DNA of 33,030 nucleotides from a virus (IMGVR_UViG_2548876960_000009), one strand, 5' to 3'. Shown: positions 25,373 through 30,730, numbered from the stretch's first letter. Made by a program: numbers and translations. Notes: generated by a model not told the origin, from the letters alone.

Positions 25373-25711
25373 CTATTTCCCTGAATTTACGACGAAACTG
25401 TTCGAGCGGGCTGAAGCACTCATGCTCATAGCCTTCACGGAGGTAGATAACCCGTTGTGTTTCCGGCTCCCAACGAATGACTCTGACGGGTACTCCGTAG
25501 TGATCTTTGAACCAGCGGTTAACTTGTCGCAAAGGACTGTCTCCTTCTGCCGGTTGAAATCACCCACAGCCCACTCAGCAAAGCTGTGGGTTACAATTTC
25601 CCTGTCACCTGGTACATTTACTGCATAGCAATACTCCACCTTCGCTTTTCCACCCGGTACAGGAAGCGCAATCAGTTGCGAGCGACGGTAGTGTGTTGTT
25701 AAACTGTTCAT
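25373..25711 (-). CDS. Hypothetical protein (112 aa) coupled to the YdaT-like gene
   Basis: ATG overlaps the upstream gene's stop (ATGA) and ends 9 nt before the replication gene; C-terminal part is low complexity, so the true frame or extent is uncertain. Confidence 0.35.
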
Positions 25712-26271
25712 GCGTTAGTTTCTCCACAGTCACGACACGCCACGGCGCCCGGAGCTGCACACTCGCGGGCGTCACTACTTTCTGAAACGCAAAAGATTTT
25801 GTAGACCAGTGCTGCATGCTCCTGCAGCTTCGAAATTGAGAGGTACAGCTCATCGTTAATTGCTGTCTTCTCATGCGGTTCCACTACACCATCTTCAATT
25901 GCTGAACGAATCTGTTTTGAATAACTGCCGATCTGTTCAATGACCTCCAGCAGGCGTTGGTTGATATCGGCGTTGTCCACATCCTCGATGTCAGGAAGAG
26001 ACACAAAGACGCCATTTGCAGACTGCGCCACAGCATCAGCAATGAAGTGAGTGCCACCAGCACGCTGTAAAACCATTGCCCATCCCAGCGGGAAAATCTG
26101 ATCGCCATCTGCACGAAGGCGGTTGAATAAAGCGTTTTCTGTTACATCGAGCCAGTCAGCCGCTTCAGCGTAACCCCCCGGCAACGCCGCGATAGTTTTT
26201 CTGACAGCTTTCACGTACCACTCAGGCTGTTTTTCTATTTTCCAGTGATGCTTACCCACGATTAGCCTCAT
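25708..26271 (-). CDS. CII-like / YdaT-family early regulatory protein (tentative)
   Basis: 187-aa ORF directly downstream of cro in the PR operon, the position occupied by cII/ydaT in lambdoid prophages; C-terminal Cys pair. Family assignment from context and memory only. Confidence 0.4.
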
Positions 26272-26302
26272 CGTTCTGTGGTTAAAAATTGAAAGTGTTC
26301 TG

Positions 26303-26494
26303 CTAATCTTTCGGATAGATATCCGGTCTTAAGTCAGATTTCGTAATTGCACCTGACGTGCATTGCTCAAGTTTTTTAGCCAGCACAAAACTGGCTTTTT
26401 TATAGCCATTGAAAACCAGCCGTAAGTAGCCAGGTGTTGAGCCAACTTTTCCGGCCAACTCGCCCTGCTGTTCTTTGGTTAAAGAGTCCCAATA
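26303..26494 (-). CDS. Cro-like HTH repressor (63 aa)
   Basis: From the ATG at 26494 (GGAGGT 9 nt upstream): MKAYWDSLTKEQQGELAGKVGSTPGYLRLVFNGYKKASFVLAKKLEQCTSGAITKSDLRPDIYPKD; divergent from cI across the operator region. Confidence 0.7.
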   Translation of the reverse strand, partial: YWDSLTKEQQGELAGKVGSTPGYLRLVFNGYKKASFVLAKKLEQCTSGAITKSDLRPDIYPKD

Positions 26495-26497
26495 CGC

Positions 26498-26577
26498 TTT
26501 CATACAATATGTACCTCCGGTGTACATATTACATGATTGAAATGAACCTTCAAGATACTTGTACCTTAACGGTACAA
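26498..26577. promoter_or_regulatory. OR-type operator region: two inverted repeats with GTAC-N7-GTAC cores
   Basis: ATATGTAC-ctccggt-GTACATAT (26498-26520) and CTTGTACC-ttaac-GGTACAAG (26557-26577), both perfect palindromic arms, flanking the PR -10/-35. Confidence 0.65.
26525..26552 (-). promoter_or_regulatory. PR-like promoter for cro
   Basis: Minus strand TTGAAG, 16-bp spacer, TAATAT; the -10 abuts operator 1 and the -35 abuts operator 2. Confidence 0.55.
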
Positions 26578-26593
26578 GGGTTTTAATTTCGTT
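26558..26593 (+). promoter_or_regulatory. PRM-like promoter giving a leaderless or near-leaderless cI transcript
   Basis: TTGTAC (inside operator 2), 17-bp spacer, TTTAAT ending 7 nt before the cI ATG at 26594; no Shine-Dalgarno upstream of cI. Confidence 0.4.
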
Positions 26594-27268
26594 ATGAAAA
26601 CAATCCATGACATCCGGCGGTCTAACGCCAGAAAACTGAGAGATGGTGTTGGCGGGAATTCTTCCTTTGCCACTATGATTGATCGCGAGCCAACCCAGAC
26701 CAGCAGGTTTATGGGAGATGGTGCTACTAAAAATATCGGTGACAGCATGGCACGACACATCGAAAAATGTTTCGACCTACCTGTCGGATGGCTCGATCAA
26801 GAACACCAGACAACGAACATCACAAAAAAACCTGATGTTTCAATCACTAATAAACAAATCACATTAGTCCCTGTCATATCATGGGTACAGGCCGGAGCAT
26901 GGAAAGAAGTTGGATATTCTGAGGTTGATTTGAGCACAGCAGAAACGTATCCCTGCCCTGTACCCTGTGGGGAAATGACTTATATCTTGCGGGTGATAGG
27001 TGATTCAATGATTGATGAGTACCGCCCGGGAGACATGATTTTTGTCGATCCTGAAGTACCTGCCTGCCACGGTGACGACGTTATTGCATTGATGCACGAT
27101 ACAGGTGAAACCACCTTCAAAAGGTTAATAGAAGATGGGACACAACGTTATCTCAAAGCGTTAAACCCAAACTGGCCTGAGCCTTACATTAAGATCAACG
27201 GTAATTGCTCTATAATTGGTACAGTGATTTTCTCAGGAAAACCAAGAAGATACAAAATCAAAGCCTAA
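26594..27268 (+). CDS. CI-like repressor (N-terminal HTH, C-terminal S24/LexA-type autopeptidase domain)
   Basis: 224-aa ORF; the C-terminal half contains ...RVIGDSMIDEYRPGDMIFVD... and a downstream Lys consistent with the Ser-Lys dyad; divergent from cro. Confidence 0.8.
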   Translation: MKTIHDIRRSNARKLRDGVGGNSSFATMIDREPTQTSRFMGDGATKNIGDSMARHIEKCFDLPVGWLDQEHQTTNITKKPDVSITNKQITLVPVISWVQAGAWKEVGYSEVDLSTAETYPCPVPCGEMTYILRVIGDSMIDEYRPGDMIFVDPEVPACHGDDVIALMHDTGETTFKRLIEDGTQRYLKALNPNWPEPYIKINGNCSIIGTVIFSGKPRRYKIKA

Positions 27269-27280
27269 TCAATGTTTATG

Positions 27281-27303
27281 AACCTGCTTCGGCAGGTTTT
27301 TTT
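27281..27303 (+). terminator. Intrinsic terminator after cI
   Basis: AACCTGC-TTCG-GCAGGTT followed by TTTTT, 13 nt after the cI stop. Confidence 0.75.
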
Positions 27304-27307
27304 ATAC

Positions 27308-27335
27308 TTGACAATGTACCTTTGAGATACATAAT
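27308..27335 (+). promoter_or_regulatory. PL-like early-left promoter with overlapping operator half-sites
   Basis: TTGACA, 16-bp spacer, CATAAT; the spacer/-10 contain ATGTAC-ctttgag-ATACAT, the same ATGTAC-N7-GTACAT architecture as operator 1. Confidence 0.55.
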
Positions 27336-27444
27336 GTACCCAAGAGAAACAACGAACAGGCAGGACGCCCACGAAGTAGCCGCCTGGGGCATATGAAGTC
27401 CAGGATGATTCGTTAGCAACAAAAAAGCGCCCTACAGGACGCTT

Positions 27445-27457
27445 AGCTCTTTAACAA
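27445..27457 (+). promoter_or_regulatory. boxA-like antitermination element (rrn-type GCTCTTTAACAAT) preceded by a hairpin
   Basis: GCTCTTTAACAAT read at 27445-27457, about 110 nt downstream of the PL -10; imperfect hairpin AGCGCC-CTACA-GGACGCT at 27426-27443 immediately upstream. Confidence 0.45.
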
Positions 27458-27502
27458 TCTGGTCCCCATCAACAAGTAACTGATAACTTGAGGAGATGTG
27501 AA

Positions 27503-27709
27503 ATGCACAAAACAGAACCCAAAATCGTCGCGCCTGGCTACACAGATGAGGAAATTTATGAGTGGATGACAAAGAAGCTGGCAGCTATAAACCAGCTTCG
27601 TGAAGTGCTGTCTTATCGACAGGAAACAATAGACTCCTTAAAAAAACTGGATCAGGAAATCACGGTTTTATCACAGAATGTTACTTTAGATATTGTGCAG
27701 ACAAATTAG
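27503..27709 (+). CDS. Hypothetical 68-aa protein in the N position (first ORF after PL); not arginine-rich
   Basis: ATG at 27503 with GAGGAG 8 nt upstream; MHKTEPKIVAPGYTDEEIYEWMTKKLAAINQLREVLSYRQETIDSLKKLDQEITVLSQ...; its 3' end overlaps the convergent 144-aa gene by 29 nt. Confidence 0.4.
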   Translation: MHKTEPKIVAPGYTDEEIYEWMTKKLAAINQLREVLSYRQETIDSLKKLDQEITVLSQNVTLDIVQTN

Positions 27710-28115
27710 GATCCCATTCATTTTCGTCAAAATCATCAAAGTGATGAATTTGTGATCTCCAGTCTCGATAATCTAAAAATTTCTGGGCGGTTACGCTTAT
27801 TTTATCAAGTGTGAGTTCATCCTGAATTGAAAGAAGAAGTTCATCAAATTTCATCTCATTAATCTGTTTTGGCATCCAGTGATGCTTCATCAGAATAAGG
27901 TGAACCAGAGCCTTTTTCCCATTCAACTGATTATAGGGAGTGCCGAATTTCTTCCGGTGCTCATGTAAGACAAGGTCCAAAAGAGTAAGTAATGTTGCCC
28001 TTGATTCAACTTTGCTTATTTCGACTGATGACACTACCCCACTGATTTCAATGCCCCGATACTTTCCAACATTTTCACAGTGGGATTTGTACAGCGTATA
28101 GATATTACCGGACAT
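27681..28115 (-). CDS. Hypothetical 144-aa protein, AT-rich, reverse-oriented moron next to the immunity region
   Basis: ORF with AAGGAAAAG upstream of the ATG at 28115; composition visibly more AT-rich than flanking phage genes; C-terminal ...RDWRSQIHHF... No family recognised. Confidence 0.55.
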   Translation of the reverse strand: MSGNIYTLYKSHCENVGKYRGIEISGVVSSVEISKVESRATLLTLLDLVLHEHRKKFGTPYNQLNGKKALVHLILMKHHWMPKQINEMKFDELLLSIQDELTLDKISVTAQKFLDYRDWRSQIHHFDDFDENEWDPNLSAQYLK

Positions 28116-28399
28116 TTCTTTTCCTTTTGCGTTGTTGGGGATAACCAGATTAACCGAATCCTTGTTGTTGGGGAATAACTAGGTCCACCTCGCCTGATGT
28201 GGCTAAAAGCAGGCACATAACAGCTAAGTATTTTCAACCAGAGAGAATCCTTAGCGTTGTGGTGAATGCGGCTCAGCGCACGCGGGTTAAGGTTGAGGCT
28301 GACAGTCGACCTTCTGTGGATACCCACCCGCCTGGTGTGCAACCTTCGCCAGGCACCGGGAGGCACCCGGCACCACAACTTTATGCTGTGTGTAGTCTT

Positions 28400-28446
28400 G
28401 GCGGTACCAGCTTATACCCTTGCTTCCAGCTGGTACCGCTCTTTTT
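28400..28446 (+). terminator. Strong intrinsic terminator within the early-left transcription unit
   Basis: GGCGGTACCAGC...GCTGGTACCGCT (12-13 bp stem) followed by CTTTTT; no T-run on the opposite strand. Confidence 0.65.
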
Positions 28447-28535
28447 ACAAAACAGAGAAGAGCATCACCGGACGACGGGCTCATAACCCAATCCATCCGG
28501 GCGGCTGCCACCGCAGGTGTTCTTCTCTGTTTTGT
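28447..28535. repeat. Inverted repeat: 16-bp arms (ACAAAACAGAGAAGAG / complementary arm with one G:U-compatible difference at the arm end) flanking a 57-bp GC-rich spacer
   Basis: Read directly at 28447-28462 and 28520-28535; lies between the terminator and the RBS of the YfdP-like gene. Confidence 0.7.
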
Positions 28536-28583
28536 GGAGAAACCAACCGACCTTGCAGGGTCGATATGATGAGGAACAGCAAA

Positions 28584-28946
28584 ATGGCTAGCGAACGCAG
28601 TACTGATGTGCAGGCATTTATCGGGGAGCTGGACGGCGGCGTATTTGAAACCAAAATCGGCGCAGTTCTCAGTGAAGTCGCTTCCGGTGTGATGAACACG
28701 AAAACCAAAGGGAAGGTCTCACTCAGCCTGGAAATCGAACCATTTGATGAGAACCGTGTGAAAATCAAACACAAACTCTCATATATTCGCCCGACTAACC
28801 GCGGGAAAATTTCCGAAGAAGACACCACCGAAACGCCGATGTATGTCAATCGCGGTGGTCGCCTGACAATTCTGCAGGAAGACCAGGGACAATTACTGAC
28901 TCTTGCCGGTGAACCTGACGGAAAACTCCGCGCAGCAGGTCATTAA
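28584..28946 (+). CDS. yfdP: YfdP-like protein (120 aa)
   Basis: ATG at 28584 with GAGGAA upstream: MASERSTDVQAFIGELDGGVFETKIGAVLSEVASGVMNTKTKGKVSLSLEIEPFDENRV...; size and position (before yfdQ-like) match CPS-53 YfdP as recalled. The track's upstream extension from 28266 crosses the terminator and is probably not coding. Confidence 0.55.
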   Translation: MASERSTDVQAFIGELDGGVFETKIGAVLSEVASGVMNTKTKGKVSLSLEIEPFDENRVKIKHKLSYIRPTNRGKISEEDTTETPMYVNRGGRLTILQEDQGQLLTLAGEPDGKLRAAGH

Positions 28947-29011
28947 TATCGTTCTTAATTAACTGATTATTTATCTCATCACTGAATATCTTTATATAGT
29001 GAGGACTTATT

Positions 29012-29836
29012 ATGTCTCAGAACTTAGACGCAACCGCAATTAATCAAATCCATGCTCTTATTTCTGCTCAGGGTGTTAATGAAATTATCAGTAAGATTGG
29101 TGCCGATGCTGTGGCATTGCCTGAGAATTTCCGCATTCATGATCTGGAAAAATTTAATTTAAATCGCTTCCGTTTCCGTGGTGCGCTTTCCACTGCCAGC
29201 ATCGATGACTTTACCCGTTATTCTAAAGATCTTGCAGATGAAGGCACCCGCTGCTTTATCGATGCTGATAATATGCGTGCCGTCAGTGTGCTTAACCTGG
29301 GTACTATTGATGAACCAGGTCACGCAGATAACACCGCCACTCTCAAACTGAAAAAGACAGCACCGTTCTCTGCACTGTTGTCTGTTAACAGCGAGCGTAA
29401 CTCCCAGAAGTCACTGGCAGAATGGATTGAAGACTGGGCCGACTACCTTGTGGGTTTTGATGCTAATGGTGACGCTATCCAGGCAACAAAATCGGCTGCG
29501 GCTGTCCGTAAAATCACGATTGAAGCAAACCAGACCGCTGATTTTGAAGATAATGACTTCAGCGGCAAACGCTCCCTGATGGAGTCTGTCGAAGCGAAGA
29601 CCAAAGACATTATGCCAGTGGCATTTGAATTTAAATGCGTTCCGTTTGAAGGTCTGAAAGAACGTTCTTTTAAATTACGCCTCAGCATTATCACTGGCGA
29701 TCGTCCTGTACTTGTTCTGCGCATTATTCAGCTGGAGGCTGTGCAGGAAGAAATGGCTAACGAATTTCGCGATCTGCTTGTTGAGAAATTCAAAGACAGC
29801 AAAGTAGAAACCTTTATTGGTACTTTCACCGCCTGA
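29012..29836 (+). CDS. yfdQ: YfdQ-like protein (DUF2303 family, 274 aa)
   Basis: 274-aa [51 protein letters not shown]...; size and sequence character match K-12 CPS-53 YfdQ as recalled. Confidence 0.65.
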
Positions 29837-29848
29837 TTTGATTACTGC

Positions 29849-29870
29849 AAATGCCCCTGCGGGGGCATTT
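29849..29870 (+). terminator. Stem-loop after the yfdQ-like gene (weak terminator or RNA stability element)
   Basis: AAATGCCCC-TGC-GGGGGCATTT; the T-run is short and partly inside the stem. Confidence 0.3.
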
Positions 29871-29964
29871 ATGGAAACGTAATTAACTCAATAATCGCCG
29901 GATGGTGAGGGCTTCCTTTTACCAGAATTCAGTGCGGTGCAGCGCAAATAACGTGGAGAACAAA

Positions 29965-30501
29965 ATGTCATTTATTAAAACTTTTTCTGGGAAGCATTTT
30001 TATTATGACAGGATAAATAAAGACGACATCGTGATTAACGATATCGCGGTTTCCCTTTCAAATATCTGTCGCTTTGCAGGACATCTTTCACACTTCTACA
30101 GCGTCGCCCAGCATGCGGTGCTTTGCAGCCAGCTGGTACCGCAGGAATTTGCTTTTGAAGCGTTAATGCATGATGCAACAGAAGCGTATTGCCAGGACAT
30201 CCCGGCTCCACTGAAACGCCTTCTTCCTGATTATAAACGGATGGAAGAAAAAATAGACGCCGTAATCCGTGAGAAATACGGGTTACCCCCGGTTATGAGC
30301 ACACCTGTGAAATATGCCGATCTCATCATGCTGGCAACCGAACGCCGCGATCTCGGACTTGATGATGGCTCTTTCTGGCCTGTACTGGAAGGCATCCCGG
30401 CAACAGAGATGTTCAAAGTTATTCCACTGGCTCCGAGCCATGCCTACGGGATGTTTATGGAGCGCTTTAACGAGTTATCGGAGTTACGCACATGCGCATG
30501 A
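29965..30501 (+). CDS. yfdR: HD-domain phosphohydrolase (YfdR-like 5'-deoxynucleotidase, 178 aa)
   Basis: From ATG at 29965 (GGAGA upstream): MSFIKTFSGKHFYYD...HLSHFYSVAQHAVLCSQL...ALMHDATEAY..., HD-motif pattern (H...HD...D); size matches YfdR as recalled. Confidence 0.65.
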   Translation: MSFIKTFSGKHFYYDRINKDDIVINDIAVSLSNICRFAGHLSHFYSVAQHAVLCSQLVPQEFAFEALMHDATEAYCQDIPAPLKRLLPDYKRMEEKIDAVIREKYGLPPVMSTPVKYADLIMLATERRDLGLDDGSFWPVLEGIPATEMFKVIPLAPSHAYGMFMERFNELSELRTCA

Positions 30502-30535
30502 GTCTTTCAACCGAACAATCACTGGAGGGGCAGCA

Positions 30536-30730
30536 ATGAACAACTTAATGACAACAAAACAAGTCGCCGAATTCTGTGGCGTTTCAATATCGACGGTGCT
30601 TCGCTGGAACAGCGTAAACAGGAGGACTGGCCAGAAATACAGACCAGATTTTCCAGATCCTGATATTAAATCCTGCCCAAATAAATGGGCATCACGCAAG
30701 ATATATAGGTTTGCTGGAGTAATAGAGTAA
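30536..30730 (+). CDS. Small HTH DNA-binding protein (excisionase/AlpA-like, 64 aa)
   Basis: ATG at 30536 with GGAGGGG upstream: MNNLMTTKQVAEFCGVSISTVLRWNSVNRR...; near the integrase. Confidence 0.5.
   Translation: MNNLMTTKQVAEFCGVSISTVLRWNSVNRRTGQKYRPDFPDPDIKSCPNKWASRKIYRFAGVIE

Follow-up and report, generated by a model that had tools for sequence, protein, structure and literature searches.

The put RNA of the HK022 type, which binds the zinc-binding domain of beta', needs no proteins to suppress terminators, and Nus complexes of the rrn type are effective against Rho and poor against intrinsic terminators. The boxA of the rrn operons is bound tightly by NusB:NusE without N (approximately 8 nM; PMC2800207), and in rrn operons and CRISPR arrays boxA has been described as shielding untranslated RNA from Rho independently of N (PMC7665894). 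The interaction of boxA with NusB/E can also act negatively, for example in suhB (PMC12360218). Here we describe the early-left region of a prophage that carries a perfect boxA and lacks an N gene. Judged by comparison with related phages and with the systems mentioned above, this boxA is an orphaned nutL boxA that probably works as an N-independent Nus site.

The window, i.e. the whole stretch of 33,030 nucleotides analysed here, is by its sequence a lambdoid prophage of the SfIV/e14 type with a gene order inverted relative to the lambda map. Positions 26200-28700 share 98.4% DNA identity with Shigella phage SfIV, and sizeable parts are shared with SfV, SfII and numerous E. coli prophages. 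The predicted early-left promoter PL (Table 1) is overlapped by an operator, ATGTAC-N7-ATACAT at 27314-27332, of the type also present in OR (26509-26527), and PL is therefore considered to be repressor-controlled, with a transcript start at about 27342. Transcription from PL must reach all four distal early-left genes (28584-30730), namely phrog_204, DUF2303, the HD phosphatase and xis. In the opposite direction, cro is followed by a gene for a regulator of the CII/CP76 family; the SfIV genome paper states that cII is absent from SfIV (PMC3851460). Two full-length matches to the cspA thermoregulator RF01766 (16069-16474 and 19501-19940, minus strand; 113 and 158 bits) imply two cold-shock-protein genes in the late/accessory region of the prophage.

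Table 1. Features of the immunity and early-left regions, with positions counted from the first nucleotide of the window; promoter, terminator and RNA assignments are predictions.
Feature	Position	Strand	Basis
CII/CP76-family regulator, next gene after cro	25708-26271	-	phrog_101, E 1.7e-70; PF06892
cro	26303-26503	-	ORF
cI-type repressor gene, 224 aa	26594-27268	+	ORF; annotated as cI/repressor in SfIV and SfV
Intrinsic terminator of the cI transcript	27280-27306	+	8-bp stem and T-run; annotated terminator in SfV and Ayreon
Predicted PL promoter, TTGACA-16-CATAAT	27308-27335	+	11/12 positions match
Conserved 69-nt three-helix leader RNA	27348-27416	+	Covariation; covariance model R1
Intrinsic terminator hairpin for convergent minus-strand transcription	27425-27444	-	U-tract 27424-27419; folding; convergent ORFs
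Orphaned nutL boxA, GCTCTTTAACAA + TCTGG	27446-27462	+	Sequence, conservation, N-encoding relatives
First PL ORF, 68 aa, acidic, coiled-coil-like, not N-like	27503-27709	+	phrog_1744; no Pfam match
Convergent cargo gene, 144 aa, antisense to PL transcript	27681-28115	-	phrog_5286
STnc100-like sRNA region ending in terminator 28400-28446	28226-28448	+	RF02076; DicF-like 3' hairpin
Distal early-left gene phrog_204	28584-28946	+	Family match
Distal early-left gene DUF2303	29012-29836	+	Family match
Distal early-left gene HD phosphatase	29965-30501	+	Family match
Distal early-left gene excisionase (xis)	30536-30730	+	Family match

The boxA 13-mer GCTCTTTAACAAT is located at 27446-27458 on the plus strand and occurs once in the window. 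An initial annotation made from the sequence had noticed it as a match to the rrn boxA core that is unlikely to arise by chance; the match is real and was found in none of 100 dinucleotide-preserving shuffles, with the coordinates given at the time (27445-27457) being one base off. Positions 27446-27457 match the E. coli boxA consensus GCUCUUUAACAA exactly. The reference for identity with the ribosomal operons was a sequence that we take to be that of the rrn leader; it was present in 5426 of 5426 complete E. coli genomes with a median of seven copies, and the 13-mer thus equals the core of the rrn boxA. The distance to a strong PL-like promoter, initially given as about 110 nt, is approximately 104 nt, and the predicted promoter matches at 11 of 12 positions, carries the operator and points in the sense direction. 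The position of PL places boxA at about +104 to +117 on the sense strand of the transcript, approximately 45 nt before the 68-aa ORF and 30 nt upstream of the Shine-Dalgarno sequence of that ORF.

The label "rrn-type" was not supported. The extended boxA GCTCTTTAACAATCTGG is present in more than 200 viral contigs with approximately 20 upstream and at least 80 downstream contexts, some of which are textbook nutR sites consisting of boxA, a spacer, a GGCTGAGTAATCAGCC hairpin and a cII homologue, and the extended form (YGCTCTTTAACAATCTGG) is likewise used in ordinary lambdoid nut sites. By its sequence, the boxA of the window is an ordinary lambdoid nut boxA, whose identity to rrn is real, yet not unusual for a phage. 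A second, weaker boxA-like site had been proposed near the 5' end of cro. This sequence, ACTCTTTAA, lies within cro (26479-26487, minus strand) and does not exceed chance (9-mers with one mismatch: 11 found, 6.5 expected). No other nutR boxA candidate was found in the PR operon, and boxA is absent from the 30 nt that separate cro from the next gene.

The lack of an evident N-like protein, already noted in the initial annotation, was confirmed. The early-left ORFs did not match N in phrog_271 or Pfam, tblastn of the window with lambda N, two N-like proteins and HK022 Nun returned nothing credible, and a scan for Arg-rich stretches in the early-left region found none, in agreement with the statement that SfIV, SfII and SfV lack N (PMC3851460). 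The 68-aa first ORF is indeed devoid of an arginine-rich motif and belongs to phrog_1744, and the suggestion that an unrecognised N might be encoded instead yielded no candidate. Homologues of phrog_1744 also occur directly after boxA in other contigs (L034, L144).

The origin of the site can be traced in prophages of Xenorhabdus and Photorhabdus (L497, L510, L511, L514 and L529), in which a leader RNA homologous to that of the window, boxA, boxB and an N-like ORF follow one another in this order. The boxB reads GCGCUGAAAAAGCGC in two of the five loci, and the N-like ORF contains an arginine-rich motif (e.g. AARRYERRAAFLAKK) and matches phrog_271, "anti-termination protein N-like". A boxA on the strand of the PR direction is present in four of the five loci (L510, L511, L514 and L529) and is followed by a boxB with a GAAAA loop in L510 and L514. 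The order of elements in these N-encoding relatives therefore indicates an ancestral layout of PL, leader RNA, nutL (boxA-boxB) and N, and identifies the window boxA as an orphaned nutL boxA. As judged from this sequence comparison, the lineage of the window kept the leader RNA and boxA and lost boxB and N.

Directly upstream of boxA, a hairpin is predicted at 27425-27444, which had initially been taken for a boxB in the boxB-boxA order of rrn leaders. The hairpin exists, but its features are those of a minus-strand terminator. Read in the minus sense, it folds with -11.5 kcal/mol as a perfect 8-bp stem with a U6 tail, and in the plus sense with -7.5 kcal/mol, a C.A mismatch and no U-tract. 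Of the 130 distinct boxA contexts collected from viral contigs, 75 have the hairpin, and all but one of these (74) show a convergent ORF of 80 aa or longer that ends no more than 400 nt away; where the hairpin is missing, the proportion is 30 of 55. In Klebsiella phage Kp4882-1, a minus-strand gene of 171 aa stops 15-20 nt from boxA, and the hairpin is placed directly after its stop codon. The folding and the association with convergent ORFs therefore suggest that the hairpin halts transcription of a variable cargo gene before it enters PL and cI, and it is better read as a convergent cargo-gene terminator than as boxB. The 3' UTR of this cargo gene includes boxA. No boxB-like structure was found 3' of boxA either, since 27446-27505 gave no significant fold (z +0.83).

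The cargo gene corresponds to SfIV orf36, which has been described as unique to SfIV (PMC3851460). It is part of a cassette (27425-28180; also L011 3000-3640) in which a variable minus-strand gene, of 144 aa here and 171 aa in Kp4882-1, is flanked by the conserved terminator and by a conserved 5' UTR/promoter block (approximately 28131-28180). In many contigs this block appears as a spurious plus-strand ORF ending VVGDxQINRILVVGE. This cassette is a possible hotspot of defence or moron genes.

The search of related phages that the initial annotation had proposed found boxA conserved. In a sample of 113 genomes picked by the leader-RNA core alone, one genome per species, GCTCTTTA occurs within 140 nt after the leader RNA in 19 species-level instances versus approximately 0.2 expected; 13 of these have the hairpin and six do not. 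In the 13 species-level contexts with the hairpin-boxA layout, the 9-nt core GCTCTTTAA is invariant, and hairpin loop, linker and downstream sequence vary. As boxA also follows the leader RNA without the hairpin, it is not merely travelling with the terminator. The location of boxA in the 3' UTR of a convergent gene, beside its terminator, nevertheless means that part of the conservation could be due to hitch-hiking. The leader RNA and boxA are separable elements: the leader RNA occurs without boxA in approximately 84% of the unbiased viral sample and 83% of the species-level instances, including SfV, ST64B and the e14 prophage of K-12, and boxA is thus dispensable for this kind of phage. A scan with the hairpin only as an unbiased boxA sample was dropped, as it was flooded by unrelated phage terminators with the same stem.

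The leader RNA itself had escaped the initial annotation, as had the relatives with the order leader RNA-boxA-boxB-N and an STnc100-like sRNA to which the downstream terminator belongs. It is predicted to form three helices, P1 (27352-27356/27409-27413), which closes the element, P2 (27359-27361/27367-27369, 3 bp) and P3 (27383-27387/27400-27404, 5 bp), with a nearly invariant P3 loop GGCRUAYGAA (GGCAUAUGAA) and junction AUGA. RNAalifold and pair counts on 46 distinct sequences gave 95% paired cells versus 24-49% with slid partners, and 10 of 13 pairs show compensatory changes; taken together with a broader alignment, the values are 95-97% and 9-10 of 13 pairs. This broader alignment comprises 96 distinct sequences from a genome scan. 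Pairing in its P1 and P3 reaches 94-98%, cells with a double change number 331, and the P3 loop and the AUGA junction, neither of which was part of the search pattern, are 98-99% conserved. The covariance model R1 detects one copy in the window (98 bits, E 8.5e-29), no second copy in the PR operon and no match in HK022, HK639 or Ayreon. Rfam 15 contains no match to 27348-27416 or the boxA region at the gathering threshold or at E values up to 10, and a literature search covering the leader RNA, the e14 ymfK-ymfJ region and boxA in prophages found no description of it. The leader RNA, with its strong covariation, is apparently undescribed.

The segment is common to phages with unrelated immunity regions (SfII, ST64B, YeP1-3, ZF40, AH07, mEp237, SPN3UB and Klebsiella phages). 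It invariably follows the repressor gene in the same orientation, approximately 100-170 nt past the cI stop where cI adjoins; the ORF just upstream encodes an HTH_3 protein in 62 of 94 cases, with a Peptidase_S24 domain in 37. P1 starts at a median of 13 nt past the -10 hexamer, i.e. at about +6 to +10 of the transcript. At least 120 species are found among the matches listed in the genome scan, nearly all of them Enterobacterales, with genera such as Xenorhabdus, Photorhabdus, Yersinia, Serratia, Pantoea, Klebsiella and Citrobacter. About one third of the complete E. coli genomes (1825/5426) match the leader-RNA region, including K-12 strains, in which the e14 copy lies between ymfK and ymfJ (L239 3549-3617).

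Several known classes were considered for this RNA. A classical riboswitch is unlikely, as conservation does not extend past P1 and leaves no expression platform, and a hammerhead or other small ribozyme was rejected on account of the wrong junction order and the lack of an Rfam match. Homology to HK022 putL/putR and HK639 putL was ruled out by direct comparison and by the lack of an R1 match; the GGAUGA shared with put corresponds to the 3' strand of P3 plus the junction and not to the put stem-II loop. No conserved protein partner is encoded next to the leader RNA, the first downstream ORFs in eight phages belonging to unrelated families. The strict rule that the leader RNA replaces N was dropped, since complete nutL/N systems also occur downstream of this RNA. 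Its role might otherwise be in stability, in processing or in the binding of a host factor. By eye, the junction CACGAAGUAGCCG (27372-27382) resembles CACUCGAAGAUACGG, which in the rrn leader of E. coli we take to follow directly on boxC.

In the lambda PL leader (L550 649-690, minus strand), the first 33 transcribed nt, which precede the nutL boxA, AUCAGCAGGACGCACUGACCACCAUGAAGGUGA (AUCAGCAGGACGCAC...AUGAAGGUGA), share CAGCAGGACGC (CAGCAGGACGCAC) and AUGA with the leader-RNA core, and the best R1 match in the 1-kb lambda locus falls exactly on these 33 nt with a non-significant score (6.9 bits, E 0.19). This weak echo of the leader-RNA core in lambda is suggestive only. In the Gifsy-like phages mEp237 and SPN3UB (L009 2570-2640, L010 2560-2630), the leader RNA is succeeded by another conserved leader block (…AACGTTCCGCTGGCCGGCGATAAGGCAAAC); in Kp4882-1 (L011 2960-3000), which is without the leader RNA, the block …AACGTTCCGCTGGCCGGCGATAAGGCAAAC precedes the hairpin and boxA. 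In further viral contigs (L185 at approximately 1190-1260, L198, L143 and 13 similar ones), the promoter is followed by AGTCGAACGGCGCGACTTTAAACCATGCGTCGG, which is similar to stem I of HK022 put and runs directly into boxA CGCTCTTTAACAATCTGG at the place of put stem II. A related arrangement, GTCGTACGGCGCGAC...boxA, was seen in 14 contigs.

The strong intrinsic terminator at 28400-28446 reported in the initial annotation was confirmed; its stem of 13 bp folds with -25.8 kcal/mol (z -5.75) and is followed by a U5 tail. According to the sequence, it would form the 3' end of an STnc100-like sRNA: positions 28226-28448 match RF02076 over the full length with 45.1 bits (E ~3e-8; 3.4e-8), slightly below the gathering score of 47, and the 3' hairpin matches DicF with 19.8 bits. 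The sRNA body (approximately 28240-28404) and the terminator (approximately 28398-28470) are separable modules, each common to different phages. Between the 68-aa ORF and the distal genes, the PL transcript is untranslated over about 875 nt (27710-28583), running antisense to the cargo gene and then through the sRNA region, and contains a C-rich, G-poor patch near 28000-28100. The gene xis is placed beyond the terminator, and its expression from PL would require passing 28400-28446; the simplest assumption is that this terminator is probably only partly read through. A survey of terminators downstream of the leader RNA in 101 loci was discarded as too permissive, with antisense matches exceeding sense matches.

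We hypothesize that the orphan boxA still loads NusB/S10 without N and thereby protects approximately 0.9 kb of untranslated PL transcript from Rho, a reading by analogy to which we assign a probability of about 0.5. Transcription from PL would produce the 69-nt three-helix RNA, then the hairpin of the cargo-gene terminator and then, at about +104, boxA, which would be in use and bound by NusB-S10 without N. NusA, NusG and SuhB would then be added in the manner known from rrn operons and CRISPR arrays, and the modified polymerase would resist Rho across 27710-28583 and reach phrog_204, DUF2303, the HD phosphatase and xis. The boxA alone is not expected to overcome the terminator at 28400-28446: since rrn-type complexes are poor at intrinsic terminators, the model leaves passage of this site unaccounted for. 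The invariant GCTCTTTAA in 13 hairpin contexts amid varying flanks speaks in favour of a retained use of boxA, and its dispensability in sister phages and its possible co-travel with the terminator speak against it.

The same observations can be read as the decay of a boxA that has become functionless in phages without N and is kept as a remnant of the ancestral nutL at a recombination-prone junction beside a selected terminator. The ancestral layout is visible in the N-encoding relatives, most leader-RNA phages, the isolated phages SfV and ST64B among them, have lost boxA entirely, single-base variants of boxA (AAAAAT, GATC) occur, and homology with other phages ends directly after boxA at approximately 27460-27462. 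A decaying sequence is, however, difficult to reconcile with a 9-nt core that stays constant across 13 species-level contexts amid variable neighbouring positions, or with an exact boxA kept in at least 80 downstream and about 20 upstream contexts, and we consider this explanation rather unlikely. Alternatively, the leader RNA might be a put-like, protein-independent modifier of RNA polymerase that substitutes for N-boxB and, together with Nus factors bound to boxA, confers processive antitermination that extends to 28400-28446. This would suit the position of xis beyond a strong terminator, and the leader RNA begins approximately 6-10 nt into the transcript like HK022 putL (PMC9378689). Its unpaired nucleotides hardly vary across hosts of more than 100 species. 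Neither an expression platform nor a neighbouring protein gene is conserved, which points to a host partner, and put-stem-I-like sequences are fused to boxA in other contigs. The leader RNA coexists, however, with complete nutL/N systems in which N is evidently not redundant, it is present in one copy per phage and not in the PR operon, and it has no homology to put in sequence or structure. We therefore regard an all-RNA nut site as improbable.

A negative role is conceivable as well, in which NusB/S10 at boxA, as in suhB, would cut translation of the 68-aa ORF, promote Rho termination and attenuate the early-left operon. Stimulation of Rho termination by boxA is documented for suhB and hisG (PMC12360218), and the boxA of the window lies about 30 nt upstream of the Shine-Dalgarno sequence of the first ORF. 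In most contexts, however, what comes after boxA is not the 68-aa ORF but antisense sequence, non-coding sequence or a boxB with N; these contexts are too varied for a gene-specific translational role of the suhB type. The position of boxA is that of nutL, and such a regulator is highly improbable. The arrangement favoured by the initial annotation, an rrn-style boxB-boxA leader possibly assisted by an unrecognised N-like protein, drew on the hairpin immediately 5' of boxA and on the identity of boxA to the rrn sequence. With the hairpin assigned to the minus strand as a terminator associated with convergent genes, no boxB-like structure 3' of boxA, no N-like protein or arginine-rich motif and no second nut site in the PR operon, this model is largely refuted and has very little left in its favour. 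The N-independent Nus site is the reading that we favour.

The locus represents a natural experiment on the fate of a nut site after the loss of N, as a boxA of perfect consensus is found in hundreds of N-less prophages and has been lost in sister lineages. If the proposed Nus site is in use, N-independent Nus control, so far known from rrn, suhB and CRISPR arrays, would extend to prophage early operons with excision functions. The most interesting result is the leader RNA, which is directly testable in E. coli K-12 because e14 carries it, so that genetics is feasible in a standard laboratory strain. Should it, contrary to our expectation, represent a new class of host-machinery-binding RNA that in N-less prophages forms with the orphan boxA an all-RNA nut site for N-independent processive antitermination, put and EAR would be joined by a third RNA-only system.

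Compared with the lambda-type nutL/N system, the boxA of the window is likewise promoter-proximal in the PL transcript and shares its sequence with real nut sites, but it is not followed by boxB, N gene and nutR are lacking, and a convergent-gene terminator is inserted between leader RNA and boxA. HK022 and HK639 are also N-less lambdoid phages whose PL transcript starts with a structured RNA of about 70 nt (PMC9378689), and in HK639 only putL is annotated, likewise a single early-left element. In contrast to put, the leader RNA of the window has its helices arranged otherwise, is not homologous and also occurs together with N. We know of no put RNA that is found together with N. The suhB leader resembles the window in having boxA in the 5' leader a few tens of nucleotides before the start codon, and differs in that its boxA promotes Rho termination (PMC12360218). 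With the prophage sRNAs STnc100, PasD and DicF, the locus has in common the near-threshold RF02076 score of 28226-28448, which stays under the Rfam threshold, and the DicF-like 3' hairpin; this likeness concerns the terminator region and not boxA, and a homologous sRNA region follows the same leader RNA in ST64B, a prophage of Salmonella Typhimurium. Unlike the boxB-boxA-boxC leader of the rrn operons, the window has a hairpin that is not the rrn boxB, and no boxC was identified in it. The context, a prophage early operon in which a role of Nus factors is proposed by analogy, sets the locus apart from the N-independent Nus antitermination of rrn operons and CRISPR arrays, with which it nevertheless shares the identical boxA core, a position ahead of a long untranslated transcript and the lack of a dedicated phage protein.
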